Assembly (NCBI GenBank): GCA_002633005.1
Contig: NMRA01000684.1
Coordinates: forward strand, 62,001-126,000
DNA: 64,000 bases
Direction: 5' to 3'
Source: Phoronis australis
Lineage: Eukaryota; Animalia; Phoronida
Under the pieces are notes generated by a model. The model was not told the DNA's origin, made no database searches, and saw only the letters and a program-made list of their open reading frames with translations. The position numbers and the translations under genes were made by a program. Each line of letters starts with the position of its first letter. The first letter of the stretch is position 1. Positions 9,201 to 64,000 of this stretch are shown in pieces.

Positions 9201-11461
9201 GGAATGACGTAATTGCAGCGATGGTAGGCGCTGGTTTGACTACACACTTTGATGTGTACCATCGGTTGCAGAAATATAAAGGTGTATTCACTTGGTGGTC
9301 AGAATGAAATCGACATCTCTTCTGCACAAACACGTTTTCATGCTTTTATGTAAGGTAAAATCTCACCAATTAAGGACGCAATATGGCGCCAAGTGAAATT
9401 TCATTTTCTCAAATTTTCACGAAGAGATGATGTTGCACCAAATTGATGTTTTAACATGTCCAAACTCTGCATCACAGCTATCACCGGACAATATCTTGAA
9501 AATTGATGCCAGAAGCCTTTGAAAAATGAAGAAAAGGGCAATTTTGGCAATTGTTTTTGTTCGAAATTGGTGAGATATTACCGTAAATCACATGCGAAGG
9601 GCTCGAGATGTGTATAAGTATACTTACTGGAATTTCATCAGTTAATTTCATTTATCTACTTCTTTTCAAGCATACAGGAATTCTTCCAAGTATGCTCAGT
9701 GAGGGATTGCGTTTCATCTGTGCATATTTGTTCGAAATTACCTGTGACCCGTAGAAATTGTTATCTATGACAGTGCTAACGTAGGTCCAATTGAGTTGCT
9801 TGAACAAGTTCACGATGGCCTCAGCACGGACGGTGTCCGACGGCAGGGTGCGCAAGAAGTAGGGATAGCGCTCTCTGTTGCTTAGCTCAGGACTCGTCGA
9901 CGAGTGACTGATCTGGAACATAACAGTAGTGAGAAGATATTAGGAATTATCAAGTCTGACTGCGTGGGTACTAAAGGTCATTTGTTGGAATAACTTGTGT
10001 CAATGTTAAATCTGTGGTCCTGTGAGCTATTACAGTTGCCAGCAGCTAATAATTCAGTGAACTCTATAAACCAGTAAGCCCTTATTGGTTCCAAAGTGAA
10101 CATTATGGGCTTGTCTACCAATTCCTTGAGATGCAATCATAGCTGTGTGTTATAAATGACATTTTATCAAACCTAAAGCAAATTTCAAAAAATTCACATT
10201 ACCAGTTATATCAACAACAGCGAGATTAAGCACGTGTTCTAGCTTCATCACATCAAAGCACCGTTTCTAAGGTTTAACGTTAAGTGTCTGTTTGAGTCAA
10301 ACCTGATTGTGAAGTGATGTAAAACGAAAAAAAAAAAAACGTGGTGAAAAAAGGCAATAACAGGCATCAGAGCTGGTAAATTGTTTATATGACCTTCCGC
10401 TTTATTGGCTGACTTTCTAGGCCTAGTTAAAGTTCCACGCTTTCTTCAGCTGGTTAAAAAATAACCTCTTAGCACATAATAGTCACCTGCGGCTTCTTGA
10501 ACAACTTCAGCAAGCTCGCAATTTGTATGGATGTGGCGCTAGACGTCCCTCCAATCACACCGATAATTTCATTTCCGCCTGTTGTATTTGAGCCATGGCA
10601 GCTATTGCCCTCTATGGAGTTCCCACCTGCAAATCACATGTTTTGATAAACTTCTGGAAACCATATCACAGGGAAGAACAACCTACAACAAATTTGCAGA
10701 CGGGAAATATCGTATAAATTGAGGAATTCTTGCCAATTAAAGGTATTCAAACGTAGCATTTTAAAGAGTAAAACGCTGATTTCGAAACCGTTATTAAGCA
10801 GTCAAGCGAAATATAATTTACTCACAGACTGGTTAATGTCAAGCTTAGCTAAAGCAAAAACGTTAAGCTAGTATGACGTTCACACTCTGCCTGTGCTCAT
10901 TATTTTAATATTTTTAATATTTTAAGTAGTCCAGATTGCTTTATAATGTCTAGGACGATATAAGCATCCCACCACAGTTTTAATTGTAAGCTCCTGTACA
11001 CGTACGTGCTAGTGTCTAGTTGAAACATGAAGCCTTATTTGTAATAAATCATTTCATACGTGGTAAATTTATTTAACAACACAAGTGAGTATGGCAACGG
11101 CACGATGTTTTATCGAACACACACGTACTAAAGTGTATTGGCGTTGGTTTTTTTTTCAAACATTAGCTTTCGTTATTTGATGGGAACAGTTTAAACCTTG
11201 AAGGCAACCAAATTTTCGCCATGTGACTCCGAATTCAAATAAGTTAGGCATCAGCACACTAAGCCTCTTGTGATATGGTCACGAAAAAGCCCCGAGAAAG
11301 CATCATTAGGAACCATTACAACAAAAGAATCAACAACAACTAAAATAATAATACTGATGATTGTGATGATGATTATGATGATTATGGTGATGACGTTGAT
11401 GATGATGATGATTATGATGATGGTGATGATGATGATGATGATTATGATTATGGTGATGGTG

Positions 11462-43700: not shown

Positions 43701-46239
43701 GAGAACTTTTGAGGAGCACGTGTTGAAATTAACGTATTTAATTAAAGGGCAATGTGAGGTACCTTGTTGTAGGGCGCCACACCAATCCATCGTCTCACCG
43801 TGGTCACCTTTCTCGTACCACATGTTCAGGCACGGTCGCCCATTGACTGTGAGCGTACCTACTCTGTTATTTGTATCCGTTCTCAGCCAAAATCTATCTA
43901 TTTTTAATTAATGGGCTCGGACAGATCCCTGGGGACAAATTTGATTCGAATTATCACCGCAAGTACCCTGCTCTTTTCCAACACATGCATAACCTACTGC
44001 ATGTATCTTATACGCACGTATTTAGCCGCATGCGCCTGTATGCGAAGCTGACGGCTTTCTTCTGCAATTAGGTGTATGCGCCTAAATGCGACACATTTGA
44101 GTAAAACCAAATGAATTTAGCTTAAGTATTACAGAATTGTTGACATTAACTCGTATTCACTTGAAAGTACGTCGTATGCATGCGCTTGAATGCACATGAA
44201 ACTCTAGGACAAAATGTTGTTTGAAAAACCGCAATATTTTGCATGTGGGTGCATCGGACTAAATATTCGCATGTAGGGTATTGCATAAGTTAGGTGTCAC
44301 TTAAAGGTGATATCGCATTCAATATTATTTTAGGAAGGGACGATCCACTAAACTGATACGTGAACGAACGCTGTCACAACCTAATTGCAGGTTACATAAA
44401 CACTGTTGTTTATGTTTACGTTTTTAGAAGAGTACCGTAAACAGATAACTAGGTCACAAGCCAAGTGCAAATGCTAAAAATAAGACAGCTGTTTTTGCCA
44501 TTCAGCCGATTTTAGAGGCAACCGGCGTGGGTATCTGTTATTGCAATACGTTACGTACTTTTTACAAATAATCTCTTCTCGAATAAAGCATTTGCAGCAG
44601 TAGACTGGAGTTGGAGTAGTGGACAGTCTCTATTTCCAAGTTGTTTCATGTATTTTGATACTGGGTCACTGTATGCGACTTCAGCCAGAGACCAAAAAAA
44701 CAGAACAGTGTGTGTCAAACTGCCCAGGAACATTAAATACTCGAGATGTTACGGAGAATTTCACTTGTACCTGAATAACACAAACGCTTGATAACCGAGC
44801 TCACGCAGTGGAAGGGTACACATACCGTCCACCTCTGTGCTTCTAAATTCTAGCTACGCCTCCCAAGTCGTCAGAGTCCCAGACTTGCAAACATGGGGGC
44901 GCGGAGACCTAACTCCAGTCCTTGGGAACTAGTTTCTCATCCGAACAGATGCCCGGAACTCAGGAGTTAGGGATCGCCGGCTCCATAGAGACTGGTTACA
45001 GAATATGGAGCATTTTTAACGCGTGTATGAAATTAAGAGTGCGGGTTTGGTGTTTTGTTGATCCCCGGGGCGCGCACATGACGGGATCGCTCGTTTGGTT
45101 ATTCCGACATCAGCTTTACTGTTATCATTTTCTAATTCTTTACGAACAATAAAAGAAGGTAGCACGGGAAAAGCGACAACACCCACGGGCTCTTCAGAAA
45201 ACTTAAAAATACAAGTATAGGACGCCTTGCACTGTGAAAAGGTCAAACTTCTCACTGTAGGCGCGCCTTGGCGTTTTTACCGAACACTATTGGCTTTTGA
45301 TTTTAGCCAAGACAGATATGTGACCATGACAAGCCAAAGTTATTTTTTGTCTTTTGCATCTTGTCTTCTGTCTATTCGAGCGCATTCAGGATTTCTGTTT
45401 TTTTGACAAATTTTCTGATCGACTTACAGCCTTAGCCTGTTTTGTGAAGCAGGCCAACCATCCGTCGACTGGTTTTTGGCCGGAAGTCGAAAGACTTCGA
45501 GAAACAGGCCAACCAGTAAAAGTGATCTTCAACCCAAAGAGACGCCATCATCTTATATAACTCTATTCGACAATACAGAGCTAAGTGTTACGAGCTACTC
45601 AAAACCGTAGTACTCTAGATGTGTTGATTGGCATTATTATGGCACAGGTGAATGTCCAGTAGCAGTGGCGCTTGTTGCCGTCTTTAAATCGTTATTAAAT
45701 GTCATGGTCATAAACAAACATGAACGTCGTTACTTCGCAGAAATATGAAATAAAAAATAACCCCGTTATCCAGTTTTATTCTTGCGACATATTTAAAGTG
45801 GGTTAACGATAGATTTGTGCGGTATCATTAGTATAGTACCTTCTCGTTAAAATGAAACAAGTAATCGGGAAATTGGAAAATCAACTTGTATGCGTGATTC
45901 ATGGAATGGTTTCCTCTCTTGTTCGGGAACTATGAAGTATTTCTGTATACGCAATTAACCATCACAGTGTCCAGCATTCACAGGCCTTCGTTATATAGTA
46001 AGAAGATACAATTTCCCGCCGTTTTCATAAAATAATTAGACTGGCATTTCCCACAAAAAACGAGGTCGTATATCCAGTTAGTCAGTTTATTGACCACAGA
46101 GTGTGTGTACAAATTAAAACACAATGCACTCGATCAGCAAGCATTCCGATCACTTAATAATGTAATAACAGTGAACAAAGCACTCAATGGCATAGCTATG
46201 AACAGTCGTAACAAAAGGATCCTATTTCTACTACTTAAT

Positions 46240-46830
46240 TAACCTTATTAATAGTAGAACCATAAAACTCCGTCTTTTGAAAATTCTCGATGATCACAGA
46301 ATCATATATCAAATAGTGTCTAGATATTTGTAATCACAATTTATAAAAAAATCTTGATTTTCACCGCACGAAGATCGTCGTAATCCACAAAAACATCTTT
46401 TTCACATGAAACTTGCTAATTCTGTTTCTTCGTTCTATAAGCTACAAGAATGTCCAGGATTTTCAACAAGACCATTTAGCCTGAGAACTCTGCTGTAAAA
46501 AACGAAGACGTCAACATTCTTTGAAAAAAGTGTTCGTGGAAAATACTCTCAGAGAAAAATTGAGATTTTCTTTAGGAAACGCGCAATCATGCACAATTGA
46601 TAACTGCTTTTGAGTACATAACAAGATTCTGTGCTCATCAAGGATTTTAAAAATATATTGTTTTATGGGTCTACCATCAATACTAAAGTTCTTTAAGAAG
46701 TGCAATGCTATGTAACGAAGGTAATCCATTAACATAACTTGCGCCAAACCTAATTCGTTGTTATATATGGTGTATTTAAACACCCACTTAAACAAACAAA
46801 GATAATATGTGATTAGTGGAATCATTATGG
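46240..46830 (-). mobile_element. Decayed L1/Tx1-like ORF2 C-terminal remnant
   Basis: KQYIFKILDEHRILLCTQKQL...CAF.KE...FFKEC resembles 'FQFKILHRIL.TN..L...CTFC..E.....LF.EC'. Confidence 0.45.
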
Positions 46831-47099
46831 CGTCTTACGTTTAAACAATTAGACTAATGACGGTTTACAGGTTTACAGGGGAGTAAGTTGAGGCAAAACT
46901 ATAAACATCAAACTCCCACTACCCGTTTTTCAAATCTTCGGTAACAGCGGCAAAGCATGAGACAGACACACACTTTGGGGTAGAGTGACAAATAGACACA
47001 GGGTAATTGACAGAAATGTCGGGCTAACACTCATTACCACCAGATGGTTCTTTCAACCTCCTCCACAGGCCACACCGGCTGGCCTATGCAGACAAGAGT

Positions 47100-47400
47100 A
47101 CCACGTTAGGCAATGGTTATGTCTTACAGTTAGTCGTATACTTTTCTAACCGTGCGGTTTCCCTATCAATAGTCTTTGTGTTTAATTCTTAGTAAAATAC
47201 ATTAACCTACATTTTAAAATAAACTCGCATTGTATCTTTTTTCATTGTAGGTGTATTTATTTCTGATGTTATTTATATTGTTCTTCTTACTTGTTAATAT
47301 CTGTTTAATGTATATTACTGGGTGGTCAGCTATTAGCGGCCCCTGCCTTTGCTGGCCACCCAGTCATATAACAATGTGTTTTTAAGATTTAAAAATAAAA
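47100..47400 (+). mobile_element. CR1/L2-clade LINE 3' end remnant
   Basis: FSNRAVSL/NSL...TF/KNKLALYL (frameshifted), T-rich UTR, 14-bp stem ACTGGGTGGTCAGC/GCTGGCCACCCAGT (47317-47364), then AATAAA. Confidence 0.55.
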
Positions 47401-47790
47401 GTTTCTCTAAAGGCCAGGAGGCCGAGCGGCAAAAACTTTTTATTTTCGAACACCCACCCAGCCGCCGTCTAGTTGGCTATCTTTTCATAACCTTTAACAC
47501 TATACAAAGTGGCCCGATTTGATTGGCATTAAGTTACTAAAATAACCTTCGCCTCAAAGCCATCTACTTTGTTTGTTTCATGTGGCTGGGAAATCTCCCA
47601 TAGAAGAGGTTGTCGGTGATATGCTGCAAGCGTGGGTGACTGCCCTGAATTTTTGTGAGCAATTTCTGTTTTGCTCCCAGGTATGGGTGTCACCTCATCA
47701 GTGTCATCCAGAACTCGCCAGGTTTTGTATGCGTAAACATTAACAAAGACTTTATATAGAACCTAATTTCTCCAGACATAATTTCAACAC

Positions 47791-47813
47791 CGCGTGCGTG
47801 CGTGCGTGCGTGC

Positions 47814-47853
<40 letters not shown>

Positions 47854-47860
47854 GTGTGTG
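47791..47860 (+). repeat. (GCGT)n(GT)n microsatellite
   Basis: Directly visible. Confidence 0.97.
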
Positions 47861-47899
47861 AGAATGGCGCGTGAAAGTCCTTCCCCCCCGCTCCCCTTT

Positions 47900-48051
47900 C
47901 CCGTTCCCGGTACATTTTATATTGCCTTAGATATCTATTAGTTGCTATTATATACTTTTGTAAAAGCCAAAACTGAGGCACCCAACCTCCCAACCTCAGA
48001 CTGGCTAGGTGATGTTGTCTGGGCAATAAATGTATTAAAAAAAAAAAAAAA
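47900..48051 (+). mobile_element. Poly(A) retroposon 3' end
   Basis: ...TCTGGGCAATAAATGTATT followed by an A-run; same terminal signature as the 2502-2645 insertion. Confidence 0.6.
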
Positions 48052-48268
48052 TCCAACCAAGGCACCACCAACAGTCATAAAACTAAGAAATCTATTTTAT
48101 AGAAGCTGTTACATAAAAATATTCAAAAGCAGCACTGTTTCATACAAGTCTGGTTGTGGAGCAATTGCCAACTGCAGTCTGCAATGTGTCTATCCTTATA
48201 TCACTGAGCTGGGCACAGGAAGTACAGTGAATACTTCCAGTGACCACGATGAGGCCTAGCACTCCCAG

Positions 48269-48328
48269 CTAAAGAGATGAACTGAAGACCAGTCCTTCAA
48301 ACACTGGGCAAATGAAGGCACAGTTTTC
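48269..48328 (-). CDS. Putative terminal exon (ENCAFICPVFEGLVFSSSL*)
   Basis: Acceptor AATAG (weak pyrimidine tract), phase 0, TAG stop at 48271-48269. Confidence 0.45.
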   Translation of the reverse strand, partial: ENCAFICPVFEGLVFSSSL

Positions 48329-51300
48329 CTATTATTTAATATGTAGAATATCGAACAAAGTTCCCCTACAGAAAGCTAACAATAATTTAAACCCATTTAC
48401 TACATTTCATCCCAACATTATTTGTTCCATTTTAACAGTACAACCGCTTTCTAACAAGTTAAGCTCAAAATAAGTTCATCAAGCACAATTTGAAAACGTT
48501 TATTTTTTACAAAGTGAGCCAACTTTTTGATGTCTGTGTCATAATAATAATAATAAGACTTTTTTCCACTTTTATGTGCTCTTATTTACAAACTATTGAA
48601 ATTTATTATCAACAGATTCTCCCCTCCCATCAGGTCACATTTTGAGTTGACCCTCAGTGGTCATCCATTCACCCAACTACCCCTCCCCCTCCCACCAAAT
48701 ATTACCCCCTCACTCATCACTTCCGAGTCAATAAGAACAAAGCCGCACAAAATAATGCTTCACAGAGTGGACATCAGCTGCTCATCGAGGGGGTACAGTC
48801 ACTCTTGTTGGACCCAACGTCTACAGACATGTTACTTGAACTCCCAGTTGTTTCCTACGCCTATGTGTACAACACTGAGGCACATGCGGGTTATTACCTG
48901 TGTCCATGACAACCCGAGCTCAAGATTTGAATACAGAGACCCGTATTGGGTATGCATTCGAGTCAAACAATCTCTCAGAATTTTCAGCAACTCATGTCTG
49001 TGAAGCCATGTGCTGTCGACACTTAGACTGCTTTCCAACTCTTCGATCAAGTTTCGTCTGTGATCAAGAGGGAATATGAAGACAATGGTTTTGTACATTC
49101 GCAGCAATGCTGTGCCCATAACTAGCACGCTAAGACATCTCTTCACTTCAATCTCCGCTCTCAAACCTAGAATTGGAAGAAATTGATGGACTATTTATTA
49201 CAAAATGATAAACATCTTTTCTATACACAGGTAAATACACCATAATTCACTATATAGTCAGGCAAGTCTAATGAAACATTCAGCAACAACTATTTTACAG
49301 TGCAAAATTATTGATCAGATAATACTAATCAAAAGGAACATGTCTTAAAGTGTACCATTGCTTTGAGGTCCAGGATAAACCAATAACTTAACAAGAATTC
49401 TGCGCCCAAGGCACCACCTGGGCCAGTAAACTTGCATTAGAAGTTCCGCATTCATATCACATGTCTGGGTTTTATGATCCACGCATGATTTATCCACCAT
49501 TCTAGGCCAAGAGTTCTCATCTCAAATGTAAAAATATTCCCATTTTGAAGGCAGGGGGAATTGTTTTGAACTCAAGGCAATACTCAACCTCTAAAGAGAT
49601 GCTCAAACATGGAGTGAATGATCACAGTACATTACACAAATCAACTGGATACACAGAATGTAATCTGTATATGGATGATAATCTACAAGTGAGATGAACG
49701 ACCCTTACCAAGTGACTTGACACCAGCAGAGTTGAGAATCTCACACAGAGTTAGCCAGGTGTTGCCAACAGTTTGAAAATCTGCATCACTGTTACATTTG
49801 TTCTAAAATATAGAACAGCTCAGTAACTTTTATAAAGCACGACAATTAAATAACGAAGTCGTGTCATAAGTCATTCTTAGTATGCTTGAAGATGATAGTT
49901 GGAATGACCAATATTGGCTGAATTCAAATGCTGCAGCAATATATCCAAATAAAGACTGTCAGAAGAAAACAGGATTTTCCATGTTTACATATACACACAT
50001 TCCAAGTAATTTCTATAATCAAAATGAATTCAATTTAAACATCTTTTATGTACCGGTGCCTTGGATGATCTATTTGAGAATGAAAACCATCTTCTATCAC
50101 GAGATGGAAATGTTTGAGACAAACATATTGTGTGGTGGAATGACAGGGTTTACAACTTTCATTTTAGTTGACGAGAGTGAAGAAAATATCCCTTTGTTAA
50201 ATAAAACCCCTTTTCAATGGTTTATTATTAATAATTAAATGCAACATTAACAATTAACATTTATGTTTACAAACTGATGTATCGATGATTCACTCAAAAT
50301 GTCACATGACACTGAGGGTGAGGCTACCCATTTCTAACCATCAGATTTGCATGATTCAGTGCCAGAAGATGCTCCTAAACCTACCAGTGCTTTTGCCATA
50401 GCAAGTACATCGTCACTGAGTTCCAGGCGATTGCAGTACTTGTCTAGAATGATGGTTTCTTCCAGAGACCATCTTTGCCACTTTTCATACAAAGATGAAC
50501 CTGTTCAAATTGCATCAAGCCATAAGAAATGTCAATGAAGAGAGCTCCTGGAAGTCATGCACCAGTTTTAGGCAGAGTTGTGTTGTTGATTATATGTTGA
50601 AATATTTCAATATTTTAAAGGGTTAAACAAACTCACAAATGACTCAGACAGCTTATCATTCTGAAATTTGTCTGGACTTACTCCTCTTGCACAGTGCATG
50701 ACATGCTATTATATATCACAACTGTAGGGGCTTGTCTCGAGCAATAACGACTCAAACTGTCAGTTGGAAGCCTAGGAATCACCTATAACTTGATAAGGAA
50801 CATTTTGAGACAAATTTCATAGTGGTAAGATGTTTGTGTCAAAAGTCAATTTTTGTGACTAAAAAGGGCTCAAATTTAAGCAATTAGGTTTTAAAAGTTT
50901 CCATGACACTTTCTTCTAGTTTTCAGGGTTTTGTTTCATGCTAATATGTAAATCTAGCACTATAACAAAACTAAATATCTGCCGTAAGCACTATTTCAAC
51001 CCATTTCCGTAACAAATACCTCACACAATATTAACAAAAACTAAATACCAGTATCTGCCGTAAGCACTATTTCAACCCATTTCCGTAACAAATACCTCAC
51101 ACACTGATCAGCTGACAGACAACTGGGTCATGACCAGGAAACATACACTGAATGATCCCATCAAAGTCCTGCATATGTATTCATAAATTTCAAATCAACA
51201 ATAAAAATTACCCAGCCATTGATCCTTGATACCTGGTTGTCACATTCAGTTCATGTGACGTCACACCATCTGATGGTACATGACATAGTATTTTTTAGTT

Positions 51301-54300
51301 TTTCGGTGTTGTTACTGGGTTCAGTGGTGCAGCCACAACATTCTTTCAGTGCAGCCATTGTGTTGGGGCATCTAGCCATGATAGTACTGTTTCTACCGTC
51401 TGAATAGTGGTTTACGCGCATGTGCAATTTGGGATTTTTTTGGAAAGTTTTTCCTGTACTGTGGTCAAGAGAAAGCTTTTCAGAGATGAGACAAAAATTA
51501 CAACTTTGGATTTTTCAAGTCAATTTCATTTTTTCATTCCATTGTGTATGAAAAATCTAAGGGCACATTGTCAACCTTACATCAAAATACAAAATATCAA
51601 ATCAAAAATTCAAAATTAAGTACTCGTGGCCATGGCGGGACATGTTTAAAAGGTATGACAAGAATAAATATAACTTGAAAATAAATAAATACAAAGTACT
51701 GGTCAAATATTACTTTAAACAATATCAAGAGTGACGCAAAGCATTGATATGCACCCACCTGGTGCAACACAAATGGCAAAGATATAAGGGCACTGACTCA
51801 TTTGTTTAAATATTTCCATGCACAAGAGTGGAGGGCACTTATTGAACTTAAAACTGAGACTACAGGAGGCAGTGTTAGTTATCTGAAAATTGGCAAACGT
51901 AATCCTGATAGATATTGGGATTGAAGCCTGAAATTATCACTAGGGGGAACTGCAGCAGTCAGATACATTCAGTAAATGATTCCAGTCATGTTAAGCTTAA
52001 GGGAAACTCGTTTGTCATGAGGATTGCTCAATGGATTTTGCAGGTAGAGAGGTGGACACCAAAAGAGAATAATTACCATGACAGTATTAACTAATAACAC
52101 TGCTACTAGGGGGCACAACTTTTAAGCTGGCAATTACCAAAATGCAGAAGCCTAGGGTAGATGTCTCCTTGTTAAAATCTTTTCTGCCAAATTTCATGAC
52201 AATCTTTGATCAAAGTTGGGGGACATTGAGACAATCACAAAAACGTTGCCATTGCAGACACGTTTCCATCAATATAATAAACACATTCATCAAATTTCAT
52301 AAGAATTCTTCAAACCATTTACCAGGTAAAACGGCAAATGTTCAAAATAGACACCAAACTATTAAAACTACAACTAAGTCAACTAAGTGGTGCACAACAA
52401 GCCAAAGTCCTTCTTGACAGAAACACATTTGTCAAATTTTATGAGGTTCCATCCAGGATCTTGCTAGGTACAAAGCAAGCACAAAAAGGTATAATTGCCA
52501 CAAGAGGGCAGGGCAGTAACTGGATACGTCTGAAAGTCAAAATAGGCCATGTCCTCACTAACACGGATACACACACGCACGCATGCACAAAGTTCCATGA
52601 CAATCCTTCAAGAACTTGGTTGCTACAGAGGTTTGCGCAAAATAAATAAAATTACCAATAGGGGGCACAGCAGTAATGCAATACATCCAAAAACAAAGTA
52701 ATATATGAATCATACTCTCCTCACTAGAATCATATCTGTAAGTTTCAAGATAGTCCTTTCACCAAACTTTAATTTGATAAATATTGAGGCAGGTGCAAAA
52801 AAGTGCCAGTAGGGGGCAGGGTGGTAATCAGATGTGTCCAAAAATCAATGTGCCTCATGCTCTCACAAATGGCAACAAATTCCACGAATTTCATCAAGAT
52901 CCATCAAAATGTTTGCTATATACAGATACAGACACAAAAAAACTACAATTGCCCCTAGAAGGCACACATCAACAAAATGCAGCCACATGAAAATTGTCCT
53001 GTGACAATGGCTCTACGATACAAACATTTTTCTAATCCATCAAGGGACTTGGCAGATATAATATATAAACAAATACTGCAAAAAATCAAATTGTCACAAA
53101 GTAGCTGAATTTGTGTGAAAGCCGTCCTCATCCGTCAAGAAGTGCATATGAACATAGCTGCCAAATTTTAAGATTAGTTCGTGTTCGAGGTTTAGAAGAT
53201 ACAGGCTGCAGATCCAATATGTACTAAATCTGATGCAGGATGGACAAATGGATACAAGATGGACAGATGCCAGACAAAAATAATGGCAACATGTAAACAA
53301 CATAATAACCAATACGAACATATTCAAAGGATTAGAATGATATCACAAATCTAAGTCTGGTCAGCCTGCCATCAATTGGCCACATCACATGACCTAAAGA
53401 ATATAAGTCTGAAAGGATTTCTGTCTGTCTGCACATTGCTTCCAATTTGTTCCTTGCTTTAAAGTAAACATTACAACATACCATCTCTTTTGGTGCCAAC
53501 AGGAACTAGATTCTTGTACTGTGACGTCTGCTTCTCAAAGAATGGGAAACATGGCCGTAAAAGGTGCCCAAAACGCTGACTGTCGAGCCACGCGCAGGTC
53601 AGAGTGTCTGACTTAACAGTGACAGTGGCGGAACGGGGCTGGTGGTAGAGAAGTGAGACCTCACCTGAAAACAGCAGAGCTCACATCATGTACACACTGG
53701 TCGGCATACAGATCAACATTGCTCAGGAACAGGCAGACAATATGCAAAGCACAATCCTACAAAGTAATGCTAAATGCCATATATGCAGGTCATCTCAAAA
53801 ATGAGCACAAAGTTGTAATACAGTACCAGGAAATGGTTTTACTAACCAGATCCTTTGCTTTAACTGCAACTCGAATCATAAATGAACCAACTGCATGACA
53901 CGCTTAAAGTAAAATTAGAAATTTTGTAGCCGGTCTCAAATTGAGCAGCGTGAGTCCGAATTGAGTTTGAGTTCAGAAATTATACACTGGCCCCAGGTGT
54001 TGCCCTGGTTCCAATAATTCCAAACTTGCTTTGCAACGAATTAAGACAAGTGCCACACAGCTGACTCTATTTGCAGAGAACAGTTCAGCTCTAGCACAGA
54101 ACACAAACAGTATAGCCTAGCTCCAGTGCAGATGTTGAGGAGTCAGACAAGCTGGTGTGCCAAGGCAATGAAGAACTGACACAACATGTACTGTTTTGTG
54201 ATTCCGGTGTTCGGTCTGAATTAGCATATAGCCGACCTAGAAGGAGAAGTGTTACATCGCTGCTGCATTCATCCGTTGACCCCCAACACGTTCGATGGGA

Positions 54301-57300
54301 TAGCAATTAAAATGAACAAGTAGGGGGGCTGACCAGTGAAGACAGTATCTTACGCGATTGATTAACTCTACTGCCAGTGGTATTTATGGTTGGAGGGCCA
54401 GCTCTATTCAAAAGTTGCTCCCAAGAATGTGAGATGCCATTCCCCTGGACTGTTAAAATCAAGAAATTTCCAATATCAGGATCTGACCTAGAATCACGTT
54501 TGATTAATAATTAAAACTTGACAAACAAGTCTATTGTGTTGGTACACAGTGCTGTGGCAGTAAGTAGGTCAGAGCGGTCACACAAAGGAATCAGCAATAG
54601 ATAGTTAAGCCTAATTTCTCTGAAAGTCGACCGTTTTTCTCTGTTTGAAGTTTTTTGGTGATAGTATTTCATAAAAAAACAATATTCTCCACAACATTTG
54701 TTGACTGTCATTTGGAAATAGTATTTTTTAAATATTGGTGAGCGGCAGGCGTGCTGTGTACAACATAATTGCTGGATTACATGAGCTTATCAGTTGAATG
54801 GAGACAATGAGCGAGCAGGACTATGTTAACATTGGTTTGTGAAACTGATAATGCCACAGCTGCATCCCAAGTTCCCGATCAGCGAAATCGAGACTCACCC
54901 CACAGCATGGGAGCATAACGAAATGGTATCTAGCCTGAATGGGCTGTGCTGTTAAAAATAAAAGATAAGTTATAAATCGTTTGAGCACAAATCAAGAACA
55001 ATTCTGAATTCTAGGTCAAATGCTGATCATGTTTAGATTCTGAATCACCAAAATCACCCATCGACAACTTACAGCTGAAGTTAAGAGACTCTAGTATTAT
55101 TCTTACTATCCAAACTCTTTTAACGGTTTCAGTTACTGTTGACTCTTTGAGGCCTGTTAGATAACTGGCCTGCATATTGTTATACCAAACAAAAGACTGT
55201 GCCCTCAACAGTTAACAAAGGAGCCAGATGTCATCAGATGTTCACAACCAGGGAAAGTCTGGTACAGTTATTGTCAGGGTATCGCCTCAAGTTAATGTCT
55301 GCAAAGTACAGACAGGCTGTAAGAGTGTCATGTATTCAGTCTGAAACACATGACGGACCTAGTACAGTCTGGTGAAACAGGCACCTATAGTTTTATGACA
55401 TAAGGAGATGTCATAAAGGATTACAGGGGTGGCCAAGCAGCCCAAGAGCTGGACTGATTTCAATGGGCTATTGTGTTCGCATTAGCACAATCTAACTGTC
55501 TGATGACCATCATCCCATAGTCAATTTTTACCTGAACTGGGCACCTCATGAATACATTCTCCATGTTTTGTAAACAGGAATCAACTTTTAACATAAAAAG
55601 TAATTTGTAGTTGTTCTGGACCTGTTCTAATGGTGGCATTTTGGTAATGTTAGAAGGAAGCATGTTTGCTCTTTCAGCATTAGATCCACAAAAAACTGTC
55701 CTTTACTTGCTTCTTGTATTGTTGACAGGAACGTACACTAAATTTCATTCCTGCCTTTCTCACTATGGCCCATTATTGTCAACTTCCTCAATCCATGCAC
55801 TTCGCATAGAAAGAAAACTTGATAAAGTCACCATATGATTAGCAATATTTGCTTCACAGTTAGGATGAAATTAAGCCTCCAACATCAACTACCCGATAAC
55901 TACTTAAATTTTGATACTGAGTGCATCACACCATCTTACTGACCAAAGTAGTCATTCGCTTTCAAACAACCAACGTCAGTGGGCTGGCAGTCATCTTGGC
56001 TTTGCTGAGAAACTACGGCCTCCCCCTGAATGACAGAAATCGAGCAAGATTACAAAAGTGAATGGAAAAGTCTGGAAACATTCATTTGCACGGGATTGAG
56101 CACATTTTTCTTTATTGTCGCGGACAGATCTTAATCATTCTTTACTGACAGCACATGCTGAGTAATAAAGTTCGCAAGTATTTACTCACAGAGGCGCATG
56201 GCCAAAACCTTCAAAGTTCACTGCACAACATACACTCGACTAATGGATAAGATTTGTACGTGACCGAAAAAGTTGTCCTCGTGGTTTGCAATAGCAAAAT
56301 GAAGTGTGCACGCAGCAAGACTTAACTAGACAGTGAACATGCAGCCATCAGCATTTTTGTTGGTTATCTAGCAATGCTTAGCAGAGTTGAAGACTTTTGA
56401 GAAAATCTACTTCGCACATCAAAATTATCATTTAAACGCAGCGGAATTACAAATTTTAAAGACACTCAGATACAGTGAATTTAAGTTGACTACTGCTAGG
56501 ACTATAAAATTGGAACACACTAATGCAATTCAGAAATAGAAGCCCATACCCATGAAATGTGCAAGGAACAGGTGAATAAATCATTCTTCAAAGCTGATTT
56601 TTTGAAAGAAAGTATTAAGTCAAATGTTTTTAGCTAACTGCAATCATGATTAAAGGAGAATACCACCCAATTTAATTAGTCTTTTTTACCGTCTTAATCA
56701 GTCTATATCCACATCACCTCGTATATGGTCGATCTCATCTCGCCGAGAGGTGTCGCGTTAACCTGTGAGGAAGGTGAGAAACAACTCAGCGACGTCAGTC
56801 GTTCTTCTGCAGAGTGAGTGTCGCTATGGTGTGGTGTATTGTTCCCGGCTTGTGCGAACTATGAAGCTATGAGGAAAGCAGGTATATCGTTTTTTCGATT
56901 TCCTTGAGAGCACAGAATGCTTTGGAAGTGGTTTGCCGTAGTAGAGAATGAAAAGTACGCTGTAATACCAATTAAGTATGAGGCCGTGAAACTTCTCATG
57001 CCTGTCTGTGGCTGGCATTTCGTCTCCAGCAATTTCACTGACGATCGAATGCCGGCATACCAAACAGCTCATGCCAGGGCAGAAAAAGAGACTGAGGATG
57101 AAGTCAGATGTCATGCCTAGTGTGTTTGCGTACGATAGGCAGGAGACAAACCAACATGGATAGGTTTTTGCTCAGTTTTTGATCATGGAGAATTGTAGCT
57201 GGCCATGAAAACATAAGCAATTACAATTAACCCAAGGCATGAGAACATAACGTTTTATATAGCCTGTTTGATGACTTACTCATTCGTCATGCTTCTGTTT

Positions 57301-60300
57301 GGACCTCTGGGTGTAGGATGTTTTCGCCAGTTCTTTTTCCCAGTCCCAAAAATGTCATATGCAGACTTCTGTTTAGATGCAGTGCAAAATCAGGATGGTC
57401 CGTGAGACACATCTACGCTGCTCCAAGAAGGCGTTTCACTTGCGGAATTTCGTGGCAGCAAACACAAGCGTCAGTTGTTTCCATTATCGTGCAGTTAGCA
57501 CACTGACACCATGACAGATAATTCAAACGGTTTTCGGAACTATGTTCCGTTGTCTGTGCACGTTCACGGCGCCTCTCTTGTATTTCGTGATCAGTGAATT
57601 CCAGTTCGAACTGATAGCTTGTAAACCTACCAATCAACCTGTGAAGTCTTCGTCGGATGAGCACTCGTCTAAGTCGGGATTGTGAGTTGCCACAGTTAAC
57701 GTTTATTATTGTGTGCCATTTCAAAATGAATTATTCTCACCCTAAGTAGAATATATATTAAAACAACAAGAATTGATCAACTGAATTTTTCGGATATAAT
57801 AACGTCCTTCGTCAACAGAAACAGAAAACTATACGACAATTGACATTTAAGATATGGCGAAATGAATATGATACCCTAACCAATGCTTATATAAAACTGA
57901 AACAAAGATGCAATAAACTAATTGACCGCGCAACTTCATACCGTGAATAATACGCTTACAAGGAAGTCACGCATTTCGAAAGATATGCGGGAATTTTCAC
58001 CAGACAAGCGGCTTGTACCAGGATCAAAGAGAGCGTGGCGTCGGAATCGGGTACAATTGTGATGACCGTAATGCCTGATGTGAGCAAGAACCAATTAAAT
58101 GAAATTATCCGACCATAAACTGTATTAGACATCTCTGACTGTACATAATGGCGAATTTTCAAAATGCATTAACCATTTATTTTTGTATTCAGCTGGAAAA
58201 AAACAACCAATTACTGTTTTCAATTTTTAAAAATCGAATCTAAAAACTACTACCATTAGGTACAATTGAAGATAAACTACCGCGCGTATTGATACACTCG
58301 GTGGATATTCAAACGCTGATCAGAGTTGACAATATCACATGGATTCATTTTTTAACATTCTTTCAAGCTCTAACCAGATTTTTGACCAGGAAACAGTTGT
58401 GCCCACTTTTCATTTTTTATTACTGACAAAGAGCTAGTCTAAGAATAGTTATATAGTCGGTGCCATCGAAATTGTCCAGAGATTCCAGATCCTCAGTTTG
58501 GTTATCACCATATTTGCACTTTTGTATATATTTTATGATTTGAGTTCTAATAAAGATTAAACTTTAATGACACGTGAAATGTTTAGTGTAGGCCTACCTC
58601 TAATGTGGAAAGGTCAGGGATGGGCTCACAATGAACTTAACTAGTAATTAAGTTTAGCTGGCGATCAAACTTTACCACTATCGTTCCTTTGGGAAGTGGC
58701 TCTTTGTAAAGATAAACACAAGTTAACCTTTTTAGTCATTTTGCAATATTTATAATGTACCAAGTTAAAACTACTCTCCAGAGGAAACCAACTTGGCGGT
58801 ACTAACAACAACCATTGTTGAGACACTAATGCTAGCAATTACCACTTCATTAGCTCAGATCTACTTCAATACAAAGGTCGTGCTGAATACTAGCCATGTA
58901 AAAGCTGTCTGGGGCTTAGGGAATCAAAGTGGTCACCAGTGTAAGCGAGAAATTCTTCACATGTTGGCGGTGTGAGCACATGCTAATGCAGTGTATGCTG
59001 ACAGAAAGCTGTTTTTGAAACAATATCTCGATTGTATATCCTATGGTCAGATGTTAGGGGAATCTTAATTTAGATATTCATATACATATTTATTCAAATC
59101 ATTGTTACTGTGCAACTTTTGCACTGACGGCTTTGCTGTGGAAGGGTAACCTGACTTCGCGGCCCCCGACGAGCTAGTAAGTAGATATGCAGTTTTGCGT
59201 CTAATTCACCAAAATAATCACATGCACGTTATTTCTTTGGCTCACTAGTATAGTCTTTTCGTGACGGGAAGTTTAGTTTCTAACTCTGCCTCGTTTGTGT
59301 TCGTGATGTCTTCAGGCCAGCCGTGACGGGCCTGATCGGGTTCCAAGCCACTGGTCAGGATAACAAGCGTTTTAAAATTTGTGTGTTTAGAACTGAAAAA
59401 ATCGCAAGTCTAAAATTACAACACACAGCTATGTTCTCCTGTCTGTATTTCACGGACGAATAATTCGAATTTATCACCAAACAGGGCCCAAAACTCCCGC
59501 GACCGACCTTGGTAAATTGGCCTACCGAACTTTGTAGACTACGGTACGTTCCAAAACCTAATCCGTAACAGTGAAATAAAACAACACATTTGTTCAATAA
59601 CTCGATGTATTTGTAAGGGTTTTACATCGAATTTTGTTGATTTATTGGTGTAAAATGATGAATTGAACCGATAAGCTGACACCAGTAAGTGTGTTGTGAA
59701 CTGCTGAACAGACTGCATTTGAACCTCTGACGTCATTGGTTAATTTCAACACCTCCGTCTGCCGTCATGTTCAGGTAAAAGAACCGTACTTGCTGTTATC
59801 GAGTGGAACTACTCGATCTAAATTGATACAAAATAGTTTGTTTTCTGGGTAGCATTCTCCTTTAAAAACCACACATTCCTGGAAACCATTTTGACAAATT
59901 TCAAAGAACAATCTTGCTGTGATAACTGAAGGACATCACCACAGTAAGTGACCTGGCAGTTAATATGAACCTACCTCAATGACCACATAGAACCTACTCC
60001 CAGGCTCTTCTTGGTTCACAATCACATCCCCGCAGCTAAATGTTGCCAACGTCAACGTAGACACAAGCAGTTGTCTGGCAATGTCACTCAGAGATTCTAC
60101 AACAACACAAAACCAAGCATTCCGTGTAAGGCACTGGTTTTTGTACAAGTTAATTCACAGTGTTTAAACACGAAATCGTACAACGTAAATTGAGCCTATC
60201 AATCTGGACTTGAAAAATTTCCTCACCAAAATTCAGTTGAAACTTAGATATGATCCGAGACTGAACCACCACTTCCTGAAATACCACAACACCCTCTCTG

Positions 60301-63300
60301 AGTGTCCAGTATTACCCACAATGCTATGAGTTCATTAAGGTACTTAGCCTACAACTGTACACTGCTTCTGTGTCGAAATGCAGGCAACAAAAAAGCTCAG
60401 TGACATACACTATAATGTTGCTACCTCTGCAACAGATAAAATGTTGTAAAACGAAAATCTGGAAATTGGCAGTCACTGGTGGTAAAATGGTCAGCTCAAG
60501 ATTTTCTATCATATACTATCATTTTTTTTGCACACACTTCGTGGAAATGTAGTCTGGTTCATTGGTAACAAAAATTTTCATATCAATGTTGTCGGGATTA
60601 GAGACCTAATGGTAAAGCTTCACTTATTTAGCACACAATATGGCTGAAATTCTGTTTTGTCAATTTTCTACACAAAAATAAAGATTAAGAAAATTTTAAT
60701 CTAGTAGATGGCATGAAATTTTTTTGGTAAATTTTCCAATTATGTAAATGTGTTACATGTTCATGCATGAGATAAAAAAAACTGCATAATAAAACAGACA
60801 TGTATGCACAAAAGATAAAACAAACTCGCAATCCAAAAGACAGTGGACTCAACAGTCCAGCGATGTAGCGTGCAAAAATGGCATTTACAATCATATGTGC
60901 CTAACACAAAGGTCCAAATTTGAAGAAATAATAAATACTTTCATTTACAAAAACATCAAATTCGCATTGTGCCACTGATCAAAGAAGCACAATCTAAACT
61001 AAACAACACACAAAACTCATTGAAAATAAAGATCATGACAAAATCCTTTTTTAATTAACAATGATTACTTAAGCACTGCATGTTGTTGACGCAGCTGATC
61101 AAGCCTTGGTTCACACATTCTCTTTTCGGCATCTGAAAAATAAAATTGCTTGATGAATATTGAGAAACGCAGTATTACATAAATATCGACCAGTCCTGAG
61201 GATGTTATCAAGTCTTAGGGATACAGGGACGGCAACATCACTCTCCCGAGGTTCACATGACCCAATAGGCTTTCGGGCTCCGTCTATATTATGTTTTATT
61301 ACAACATGGACTGCCAACACCACATATTTTCAATGGACGAAATCTGTGGTCTTACGCATAAGCCGTGACGTCATTATTCATTAGCGACACCTGGCAGACA
61401 TAGCACGTATTACTGCCAGCAAGTACGTCATCTGCCAATCATGGTCATTTCATCGAGATTTGGATCGGCGATTTCGCCAGATTCACTACTCCAGAAATAA
61501 CTACCAGGCCTACTCAAAAACCAATCTTGCCCTTCAACAGCAATTTACATGACATTTCATCTTAAGCTCGAACGCTGATGGAAAACCTTGAACAATGTTT
61601 CACTGCTGAAATTATTTTTTTGCACTAGACAGTAAAATAGAAGAATTTCTTGTCACAATACACTAACTGGAAGCTGAGAGTGCTATGTTTAGAGGGTGGC
61701 ACCTCCTTTAGGATATTTTGCTGAAAATGTTGGAGTTGCGAATCTGTTGTCTATAACCTATGATTACGAAATAATCCACTGCTTCTTTCCTCGGATTTTT
61801 TCGTCTCTTGAGAAAGTCAGCTTTCGTAAAGAATGACTCAACAGCCTTTGGAAGTCTTATGCATTTAGTCTTATTTTCATAATCAGTTGTTCAATCAAAC
61901 TGAAGTGGAACTTGCACGCTAATTCCTTATCTCTGTGATTGCTTACTCTAATCACTTAGAAACACAACACACAGCGACGATGTGAATTAAATGAAGTAGA
62001 AAATTGCCAAATGTCTTTCAGAAGAAGTTTTGAGGTGAAAATGATCCACCGCAAATCACTCAACCGTATCCAGTACGTATCGTGACGTGGCGTACAAGAA
62101 TAACATTGCATGATGCGGCCTATATGAGCCCCAATGGTACGTCATTGGTGCAAAGGTCACCTATTTGCAGAATTTTTTATTTTCACATTGACAAGCTGTC
62201 AATGAATACAAGAGCGCACTTTGTTTAGCGTAGATGATGTTCAAATAGCAGTGTTGTAATTAAAATCCTGTTATACATTTAGAGCATGTATTTATTATTC
62301 TTTAAATAACATACCTCCGTGTAATACCACATGCAATAATCCAGCAGATAGTGAAGAAAATCACCCTCAATGACCCACAGCTCAGTGTCAGTCAAGGTCA
62401 AAAAGGTGGGCTCACATGAGCAAGGAAGAGAGAATGGCCATTCTCGCTCGATCCCGAAACTGTCACCAGCAGTCAACACAACGGCGGGACTCGTATCAGC
62501 CTGCACCTGTAAACAAAAGCCCGTACCTTAATACATGTAATACAAAACAGTTCACACTCTGTACAAGCTGAAGAGACATCCCTTTGACTCACTTTGATTA
62601 TGCTGTAACAGAGAGTGCAATTCTTTGCAAGTGAACATTTTCTTTCATTGATAATACTTCTGAGTAACACTTTGCCTAACATTAAGCTGTGCAACGCATC
62701 AAATGGGTTACTAACTAAAATATAAACCTGGGCTTCATAGATCATAAATTGACGTTTTGTAAGGTGTCACTTTTTGCCAAAAAATTGCTTCAAGCAGGTA
62801 AAATTGCAATAATTTGAAAACACTTGTTATGATCTGTGCAATAAGAACAAGAATCATGCGAGAAAATGTAAGAAGAACCGAACTAACAAGTGTTTGACTC
62901 TCTGCCCCCCTACACCACAAACCTGAGCATGCTAGTGATTTTCAGAATCTTAAATTAATGAAATTGGTCCACTCTAACAATGTCCAACATAAAGGCCCAT
63001 GGGCATTTCATTGGATGGGCTTATCTACGGAAATATCGGTAGTCAAATAATTTTTAGTCTGTGGTAGTCGTCACCTCAACAGCTCCCTTGCCAATTATGT
63101 AGTGCTTTGACAGACAAACCACCTTGTATCCAGCTTTCTTATAGACTGGCCTCAGGTGATCAATCAGCAGGCTGAAAAATAGAATAAAATAATAAGACAT
63201 AAGCGATTTCAGCAATAACAAACAGGGCTTGGCTATCCAAAGCCAATAGGGGTAGTAAAACAATTATCATAAACCCTTTTTTAAGTTGTCTTTCCTTACA

Positions 63301-63997
63301 CAGGCCAACTGGGACAGTTGTATGACTAAGAGCAGTGTTCGCACAGAACAACTTTCAATGATCTTGCATGTCAATTGCCTTGTGAACAGCATTCATTTGG
63401 TTTCCGCCATTTTCAAAATTGTTTTGATTTTTTTTCCATCAGTCTGAAACTTGACAAGATTTTACAAGTTAGTTTAAATAAACTTTGTATTTTTTCAACC
63501 CACACACCTTTTTAATGGACAAAACTGATAAAAGGTAAACAGTCTTATAACCACCACATTTCTTCGGACATGGATTAAATTTTCAGTTATTATTTTTAAA
63601 GGATATAAGGACATGCAGCTTTGAGAATTTTACTGTAACCGGATCAAAGATCATGATTTAATTGATGTGTCAAATACAAAAAAGATTGATTTAACTTCGA
63701 ATTTTAACCACTTTATTCATCAAACACAGCAACTTTGAAGAAAAAAATTGATTCGATTTTTCTAAAAGATCATTCACCCAGACATTATCTTGGATAATTT
63801 TAATGGTAATTGTTATACCCAGGTAATAATTAAATTTTGTATTCGTATCACGTGCCAGTTTTAGAGCATGATGTTCACCACCAGTTTATTCTGAACTCTC
63901 CATTCTAAGTCTACCCTCAGTCACCTTTTCACTAGACTGGCAAGCCAAGCAAACAGTCCGCATTGTTGCCCATGGAAATCAGATGACCCTTGGAACC
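48269..63997 (-). CDS. cAMP-dependent protein kinase type I regulatory subunit-like protein (tandem CNB domains) with C-terminal extension; spliced gene span, 5' end outside window
   Basis: Eleven phase-compatible exons: 63997-63925, 63171-63075, 62506-62315, 61132-61069, 60096-59975, 56025-55944, 53664-53482, 50500-50385, 49802-49709, 49166-48898, 48328-48269. CNB-B: FSCGDVIVNQEEPGSRFYVVIEGEAVV...DYFGEVSLLYHQPRSATV. Confidence 0.8.
48898..49166 (-). CDS. C-terminal extension exon (LRAEIEVKRCLSVLVMGTALLRMYKTIVFIF...LELGLSWTQ)
   Basis: Acceptor TTCTAG, donor CAG|GTAATA; 269 nt, phase 1 to 0; long open helical frame. Confidence 0.72.
49709..49802 (-). CDS. C-terminal extension exon (NKCNSDADFQTVGNTWLTLCEILNSAGVKSL)
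   Basis: Acceptor TTTTAG, donor TG|GTAAGG; 94 nt, phase 0 to 1. Confidence 0.72.
50385..50500 (-). CDS. C-terminal extension exon (SSLYEKWQRWSLEETIILDKYCNRLELSDDVLAMAKAL), cyclin-fold-like
   Basis: Acceptor AACAG, donor CTG|GTAGGT; 116 nt, phase 1 to 0, open frame. Confidence 0.7.
50964..51103 (+). repeat. Local tandem duplication (52-nt exact core, 76-nt period)
   Basis: TATCTGCCGTAAGCACTATTTCAACCCATTTCCGTAACAAATACCTCACACA at 50976-51027 and 51052-51103. Confidence 0.95.
51724..53330. mobile_element. Helentron-associated (HINE-like) non-autonomous element with ~150-bp internal tandem repeats
   Basis: Units marked by TGCCA.TAG(G/A)GGGCA at ~51940, 52105, 52496, 52652, 52803, 52949 plus AA(A/G)TTTCAT..A.ATCC; CAAGAGTGACGCAAAGC at one end and a degenerate GGAC(A) microsatellite (~53240-53270) at the other. 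Confidence 0.5.
53482..53664 (-). CDS. PKA-RI-like exon with phosphate-binding cassette B (GEVSLLYHQPRSATV...QYKNLVPVGTKRD)
   Basis: Acceptor TTTTCAG, donor TG|GTATGT; 183 nt, phase 1 to 1; no stop where RI proteins normally end. Confidence 0.9.
55944..56025 (-). CDS. PKA-RI-like exon (GEAVVSQQSQDDCQPTDVGCLKANDYF)
   Basis: Acceptor ATTCAG, donor TG|GTCAGT; 82 nt, phase 0 to 1; aligns with RI '[27 protein letters not shown]'. Confidence 0.88.
56654..59861 (-). mobile_element. Kolobok-type DNA transposon (decayed, 3.2 kb) in an intron of the PKA-RI-like gene
   Basis: TTAA|AGGAGAATACCACCCA ... TGGGTAGCATTCTCCT|TTAA: 14/16 TIR match and TTAA target duplication; contains a Cys-rich KolX-like remnant. 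Confidence 0.8.
57270..57560 (-). pseudogene. KolX / P2X7-ballast-like zinc-coordinating Cys domain remnant
   Basis: RLNYLSWCQCANCTIMETTDACVCCHEIPQV...*MCLTDHPDF matches 'WC.C..C..M.....C.CC.E...C.T.HP.F'; in-frame stop at 57413-57415. Confidence 0.75.
59975..60096 (-). CDS. PKA-RI-like exon (SLSDIARQLLVSTLTLATFSCGDVIVNQEEPGSRFYVVIE), CNB-B start
   Basis: Acceptor TTGTAG, donor GAG|GTAGGT; 122 nt, phase 1 to 0; aligns with RI '[40 protein letters not shown]'. Confidence 0.9.
61069..61132 (-). CDS. PKA-RI-like linker exon (MPKRECVNQGLISCVNNMQCLK)
   Basis: Acceptor TTTTTCAG, donor AA|GTAATC; 64 nt, phase 0 to 1, exactly bridging the flanking exons; a similar small exon sits here in RI genes. 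Confidence 0.65.
62315..62506 (-). CDS. PKA-RI-like exon (VQADTSPAVVLTAGDSFGIERE...TELWVIEGDFLHYLL...), degenerate CNB-A barrel
   Basis: Acceptor TTTACAG, donor GAG|GTATGT; 192 nt, phase 0 to 0; 'GDSFG' and 'LWVI' match CNB strands. Confidence 0.85.
63075..63171 (-). CDS. PKA-RI-like exon (LLIDHLRPVYKKAGYKVVCLSKHYIIGKGAVE), CNB-A
   Basis: Acceptor TTTTCAG, donor GAG|GTGACG; 97 nt, phase 2 to 0. Confidence 0.75.
63925..63997 (-). CDS. PKA-RI-like exon (..GQQCGLFAWLASLVKS), start of CNB-A helical part; 5' boundary uncertain at window edge
   Basis: Donor AAG|GTGACT, phase 2 matches the next exon; resembles RI 'KNVLFSHLDDNERS'. Confidence 0.55.
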
Positions 63998-64000
63998 CTA

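Follow-up and report, generated by a model that had tools for sequence, protein, structure and literature searches.

A spliced gene of Phoronis australis that joins a type I PKA regulatory subunit-like cyclic-nucleotide-binding domain to a long C-terminal tail

On the minus strand of the window, by which we mean the whole 64,000-nucleotide stretch of Phoronis australis DNA that was analysed (G+C ~39%, with long introns), we found a gene in which the second of two cyclic-nucleotide-binding domains (CNB-B), resembling that of the type I regulatory (R) subunit of protein kinase A (RI), and a C-terminal tail are made as one frame in one transcript. The CNB-B exon reads past the point at which RI ends without meeting a stop codon and closes in a GT donor (53664-53482), as the original prediction had it, and the extension that it put at ~180 aa comes to 188 residues past the RI end. 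The window holds the 3' end of the gene, and the 5' end lies beyond 64000. Exons A-H have AG/GT ends and share a single open frame, 395 codons across 8 exons with the stop at 48832. The features of the gene, all on the minus strand, are these:

Exon Z (predicted), 63075..63171, minus strand: putative start of the first, degenerate CNB domain (CNB-A), with the gene extending upstream of the window.
Exon A, 62315..62506, minus strand: second half of the degenerate CNB-A, its cassette without the canonical Glu and Arg (from sequence and language-model features).
Exon B, 61069..61132, minus strand: linker helix joining the two CNB domains; 64 nt, and it keeps the A-to-C frame open.
Exon C, 59975..60096, minus strand: start of CNB-B; 122 nt (PDB matches and C-D joint reads).
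Exon D, 55944..56025, minus strand: middle of CNB-B; 82 nt (both joints seen in reads).
Exon E, 53482..53664, minus strand: intact CNB-B phosphate-binding cassette, capping Tyr and 7 tail residues, with a donor in place of the stop.
Exon F, 50385..50500, minus strand: first tail exon, with a 23-residue patch that faintly resembles TFB helices 1-2 (joints read).
Exon G, 49709..49802, minus strand: second tail exon (joints read).
Exon H, coding part, 48832..49166, minus strand: last exon, 111 codons with TAA at 48834-48832 and four predicted helices (joint read; unspliced at 48898).
3' untranslated region, 48200..48831, minus strand: covers 48365-48269 and may go further down (seen as read depth on one strand and as X1 contigs that overlap without splicing).

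The case for a fused transcript comes from four runs of two studies that were mapped on the region; X2 and X3 belong to one study, ~18-19% of each of X2, X3 and X4 was read, and X1 consists of contigs from the second study, its being RNA a guess. The joint on which the fusion turns, E-F at 53482|50500, for which the original prediction had proposed an RNA check, was found in seven reads from two runs (1, 6 and 0 reads in X2, X3 and X4, respectively) and in one X1 contig, a sequence of 280 letters with 44 on the shorter side of this joint that spans E-F, F-G and G-H alike. The neighboring joints were read in the same three runs: C-D at 59975|56025 (8, 7 and 2 reads; 17 in total), D-E at 55944|53664 (2, 6 and 2), F-G at 50385|49802 (7, 6 and 1) and G-H at 49709|49166 (5, 7 and 10). 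All joints seen in reads are GT-AG, and the first mate lies on the plus strand in every joint read, which fits RNA made from the minus strand. Read depth was low (about 2-12 on exon bins in X2 and X3). Since reads across the fusion joint are roughly as common as those across the neighboring joints and the bin just within the intron after exon E has depths of 0, 0 and 0.94, the fused form seems to be the main form of the transcript. Reads matching the tail exons at 90% likeness came from one strand only, unlike those of the intronic repeats, so a transcribed repeat is not an obvious reading of the tail. An RI-like cyclic-nucleotide sensor and a long C-terminal extension are thus carried in one transcript, as had been proposed.

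The 3' end proved simpler than the four additional phase-compatible exons originally proposed. Three of these stand, with joints read (starting at 50500, at 49802 and from 49166 onwards), and the fourth, 48365-48269, is untranslated: no splice from 48898 to 48365 was among the 11 joints listed, read depth does not break off at 48898, and 48621-49031 is spanned by an unspliced X1 contig, from which we take exon H to be the last. AATAAA occurs in the 3' untranslated region at 48607 and 48504. At the other end, the 15 of 86 joints listed do not include Z-A, A-B or B-C, which are predicted; exon Z is placed in the gene by inference only, from its AG/GT ends, its open frame with the next exon and its phases of 2 and 0, which fit introns c.440 and c.549 of human PRKAR1A. 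Three of the four runs gave no reads in 63429-64000, which suggests that the 5' exons sit beyond the window; the N-terminus, which in RI holds the docking domain and the inhibitor site, would fall upstream of 64000 and so outside it.

Both the protein and the exon structure of the front half point to an RI-type gene. The best PDB match of exon E was RI-alpha (E 1.5e-8, residues 324-376), with RII at 5e-5, and exon C matched PKG (E 9e-6) as well as RI, the latter over residues 267-297 (E 0.001). Against a profile built from 17 bacterial CNB domains the C-D-E region scored 44.4 bits, a score reached by none of 2000 shuffles. We compared the introns with those of human PRKAR1A as given by its splice variants (c.440, 502, 549, 708, 769, 891 and 973; PMC11240189). 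In that set, introns B-C, C-D and D-E coincide in both residue and phase with c.769, c.891 and c.973, and the lengths of exons C (122 nt) and D (82 nt) equal those of c.770-891 and c.892-973. The other introns match PRKAR1A in phase only (lengths of 64 vs 61, 192 vs 159 and 97 vs 109 nt), and the c.502 intron of that set is apparently missing here. Because of the exon E match, the shared intron places and phases and the exon lengths, we infer that the gene probably arose by copying an RI-type gene at the DNA level, the introns having been compared with those of PRKAR1A.

The two pockets have fared differently. The canonical phosphate-binding cassette is described as FGE..L...PR (PMC2246266), a pattern that exon E carries and exon A does not. 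Pocket B keeps the Glu, the Arg and the capping Tyr; R10 and Y49 of the exon E query align with R333 and Y371 of RI-alpha, the latter being described as the residue that caps cAMP in CNB-B (PMC12851291). The Arg is followed by Ser, where RI has Ala; in PKG both Thr and Ser at this position are reported to favor cGMP, Thr conferring the selectivity and Ser costing only 4-fold (PMC3080414). Pocket A is without the cassette Glu and Arg, and by ungapped extension of the exon C alignment position 260 is Ile; in RI, W260 is reported to cap site A, and CBD-A to be needed for both kinase inhibition and activation (PMC4664472). Exon A is still CNB-like by language-model features, with cNMP-binding clusters making up 27 of 30 matches; the best scored 0.93, and PF00027 is present on 44% of it. 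Pfam and PDB sequence searches with exon A gave no match, exons Z and A found no solved structure in the PDB at E<=10, and Z+A+B scored -0.4 bits on the CNB profile, with 45 of 2000 shuffles as good. Judged from these residues, site A is likely dead, and the gene likely keeps one working cyclic-nucleotide pocket only. Exons A-H contain no basic inhibitor-like (pseudosubstrate) site.

The tail had been read originally as a retinoblastoma-N (RbN)/cyclin-fold domain, a reading that our comparisons place at chance level. For these we used eight RbN sequences from metagenome contigs, Pfam-checked (2 of 8) or motif-selected; the profile holds p107/p130-type N-domains only, without RB1 or plant RBR. 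Pfam assigned the two checked sequences to DUF3452 at E about 6e-46, with a TFIIB match in addition. On this profile the 188-residue tail scored -2.1 bits (538 of 2000 shuffles as good) and its first 150 residues -0.7 bits (612 of 2000). In pairwise comparisons of the tail with RbN, at least 185 of 500 shuffles did as well in 15 of the 16 tests, and 14 of 500 in the remaining one. The three collinear p107-like patches offered for this reading did not hold up either; against five real N-domains, 133, 190, 127, 42 and 197 of 300 shuffles reached the score, and the best three collinear patches between tail and RbN scored 61-71 vs shuffle means of 62-64, so three such patches are expected by chance. 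Of the five profiles tried, one was made of 74 archaeal TFB sequences; there the tail scored 0.5 bits, through a 23-residue stretch of exon F, and 38 of 2000 shuffles equalled it. Two true RbN controls scored 9.3 and 4.3 bits on this profile, out of reach of all 500 shuffles in each case, and their alignments extend through the third helix, whereas that of the tail does not. With profile, three-patch and nearly all pairwise scores at chance and the third-helix motif unmatched, sequence comparison does not support RbN (DUF3452) as the identity of the tail. The fold model of exon H has four helices at low confidence (pLDDT 55.7), and fold searches with it were generic; since a true RbN piece put through the same single-sequence folding missed its own family as well, this structural result speaks neither way.

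Other families were compared with the tail as well. An F-box profile was run because the LR_CC family is described as carrying an F-box (PMC2246266); its 18 viral F-boxes, all confirmed with Pfam, had been chosen to have the exact spacing proposed. The tail scored -0.7 bits on it, a level matched by 1014 of 5000 shuffles, and shows no F-box signal. Pfam scans of single exons gave no leucine-rich repeat (LRR) match, those of the single tail exons were empty, and exons F and G had no Pfam or PDB match. A SAM domain, suggested by eye from a patch, was tried with 41 bacterial sequences as the profile; the tail reached 4.2 bits (36 of 5000 shuffles as good) by way of two patches, 12 and 11 residues long, whereas a match to the domain would span about 60. 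Searches with exon H brought up no relatives, but the word search also missed RI when given exon E. We therefore describe the tail as 188 residues, predicted to be helical, with no detectable relatives in these searches. The variants listed in exons F-H number 14 (4 synonymous and 10 non-synonymous); all keep the frame, and none gives a stop or an indel. Their synonymous share is like the neutral 22-28% (P 0.37-0.59). All 10 amino-acid changes have BLOSUM62 scores of at least 0, vs 46-50% expected (P 0.0004-0.0009, in a test picked after the variants had been seen, and with variants mostly from two runs). Because every change is conservative, the tail may be a fast-evolving but folded and constrained domain.

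The explanation we favor, and to which we would give about an even chance, is that this is an RI-derived spliced gene whose product binds cAMP, possibly also cGMP, at CNB-B and whose helical tail binds partners instead of controlling the kinase. Beyond the single transcript and the RI ancestry, seen in both sequence and exon structure, the mechanism would run as follows. Pocket B would bind the nucleotide, to judge from its Glu, its Arg and the Y371-equivalent cap. In RI-alpha the C-terminal helix lowers Y371 onto the bound base; by analogy, bound nucleotide would close this helix over the pocket here, and the tail, because it begins a few residues past the capping Tyr, would be expected to move with the helix when site B is filled. 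The weakest step is the last, that the tail would be a folded interaction domain. Output through the tail appears likelier than output through the catalytic subunit because site A is eroded and CBD-A is needed for inhibition. Points that count against this explanation are the neutral synonymous share, the absence of the E-F joint from X4 and the lack of exon H relatives in our search.

How far the gene has left the kinase is the question on which the main competing account differs. The RI ancestry and the retained tandem CNB layout would also suit an R subunit that still binds the kinase, with release via pocket B alone or in a cAMP-resistant manner and with the tail anchoring the complex, and the 5' exons beyond the window could hold its inhibitor site. 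Since CNB-A, which RI is reported to need for inhibition (PMC4664472), is strongly diverged, to the point that exons Z and A match nothing in the PDB at the threshold used, and exons A-H hold no basic inhibitor-like site, we consider this account unlikely. Less probable again, and in our view improbable, is a decaying duplicate, its stop lost and exons from downstream incorporated, with a product of little function. The loss of pocket A, the low read depth on the X2 and X3 exon bins, the neutral synonymous share and the failure to find relatives all agree with decay, and set against them are a 395-codon frame held open over eight exons with long introns, a fully retained pocket B and tail-exon variants that bring in no stop or indel and change residues only conservatively.

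We give very little credence to the idea that the tail is an RbN or TFIIB-type cyclin fold coupling cyclic nucleotides with complexes of the cell cycle or of transcription. The TFB-like patch in exon F and the all-helical prediction for exon H lean its way, but that patch came from one profile among several, the direct comparisons with RbN are at chance, and the true RbN controls are found by both the TFB profile and Pfam TFIIB, whereas Pfam gives the tail exons no match. A cell-cycle or transcription link of the tail is not supported.

R subunits normally stop right after the second pocket, and few kinds of cAMP receptor are known in animals. If the favored explanation holds, an RI copy minus one pocket and plus a spliced, constrained tail would show a new sensor growing out of a kinase brake; unless orthologues or a tail family come to light, the gene is an odd paralogue in one species. 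More tentatively, and with the odds against it, the gene might belong to a novel class of animal receptors for cyclic nucleotides. An RI copy would then have abandoned site A and control of the kinase, adapted site B to cGMP as well as cAMP, and acquired a helical output domain of an undescribed family that would be conserved across a whole invertebrate group.

We found no paper in the open-access literature on this layout of CNB domains plus tail, and parts of it have clear counterparts. The nearest are RI-alpha and RI-beta (PRKAR1A/B; PDB 4mx3, 6no7 and 4din), which share the tandem CNB layout, give the best match of exon E, have three introns in the same place and phase and two exons of the same length, and carry R333 and Y371, whose equivalents the gene keeps. 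The gene differs from RI in being without the site A cassette and W260 and in having Ser, not Ala, after the site B Arg; RI ends just after the CNB-B capping helix, whereas here an intron and 188 more residues follow. Of RbN (DUF3452, PF11934) and the TFIIB repeat (PF00382) the tail recalls the all-helical prediction and one short TFB-like patch, but there is no significant sequence match and the third-helix motif of the controls is unmatched. A precedent for an output part placed C-terminal to two CNB domains is the LR_CC family of metazoans and fungi, in which tandem CNB, F-box and leucine-rich repeats are combined (Kannan et al. 2007, PMC2246266). As described there, these proteins resemble ours in that RI-like tandem CNB domains precede the C-terminal output region; they differ in that our tail gives no F-box signal above shuffles and no LRR match in single exons. 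By description only, the gene can also be likened to CRIS, a stand-alone cyclic-nucleotide receptor (PMC3854790), and to the divergent Leishmania R subunit (PMC11006142), CNB proteins with roles beyond the standard kinase switch, from both of which, as described, the Phoronis gene is set apart by its animal RI exon structure.

In one contig of X1, a sequencing run only guessed to be RNA, a minus-strand segment at 53846-53976 was spliced to the start of exon E, the CNB-B cassette, at a depth of 14.8; the segment had zero depth in runs X2-X4. Since a stop lies in frame immediately ahead of the joint with exon E, the segment would act, judging from sequence, either as a first exon that is not translated or as a poison exon. 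In such a transcript, the first in-frame Met after this stop sits in tail exon F, and a start there would be predicted to yield a tail-only product of ~147 residues. Within exon H, all of the reads of X2-X4 covering base 49042 (27/27) disagreed with the window, a difference that changes Glu to Asp; either the assembly is wrong at this base or the window carries a rare allele.

One-strand reads at a depth of 4-10 covered 46000-48800, extending ~2.8 kb past the stop of the gene, and an X1 contig at 46142-47784 (depth 114) carried 54 differences from the window. Either the 3' UTR is long, or the signal over 46000-48800 comes from a related repeat.

Two features lay in the introns of the gene:

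57416-57730, minus strand, frame resembling the P2X7 intracellular domain (E 0.0008, below the cut-off)
50976-51027 and 51052-51103, perfect direct repeat of 52 bases in the E-F intron

The first sits in a C-D intron repeat with deep reads on both strands and is likely a piece of a mobile element.

Near-identical stretches at 1550-3670 and 5110-7070, containing the same frames, flank a 495-base N gap, and from their sequence would represent either a ~3.4 kb tandem duplication or an assembly artefact. Downstream of the PKA-regulator-derived gene, and on the same strand, lies a class C GPCR gene, which is glutamate-receptor-like and has these exons with ANF_receptor matches:

37488-37092, minus strand, class C GPCR exon (E 5e-7)
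9655-9939, minus strand, class C GPCR exon (E 2.8e-18)
7743-7952, minus strand, class C GPCR exon (E 0.029)
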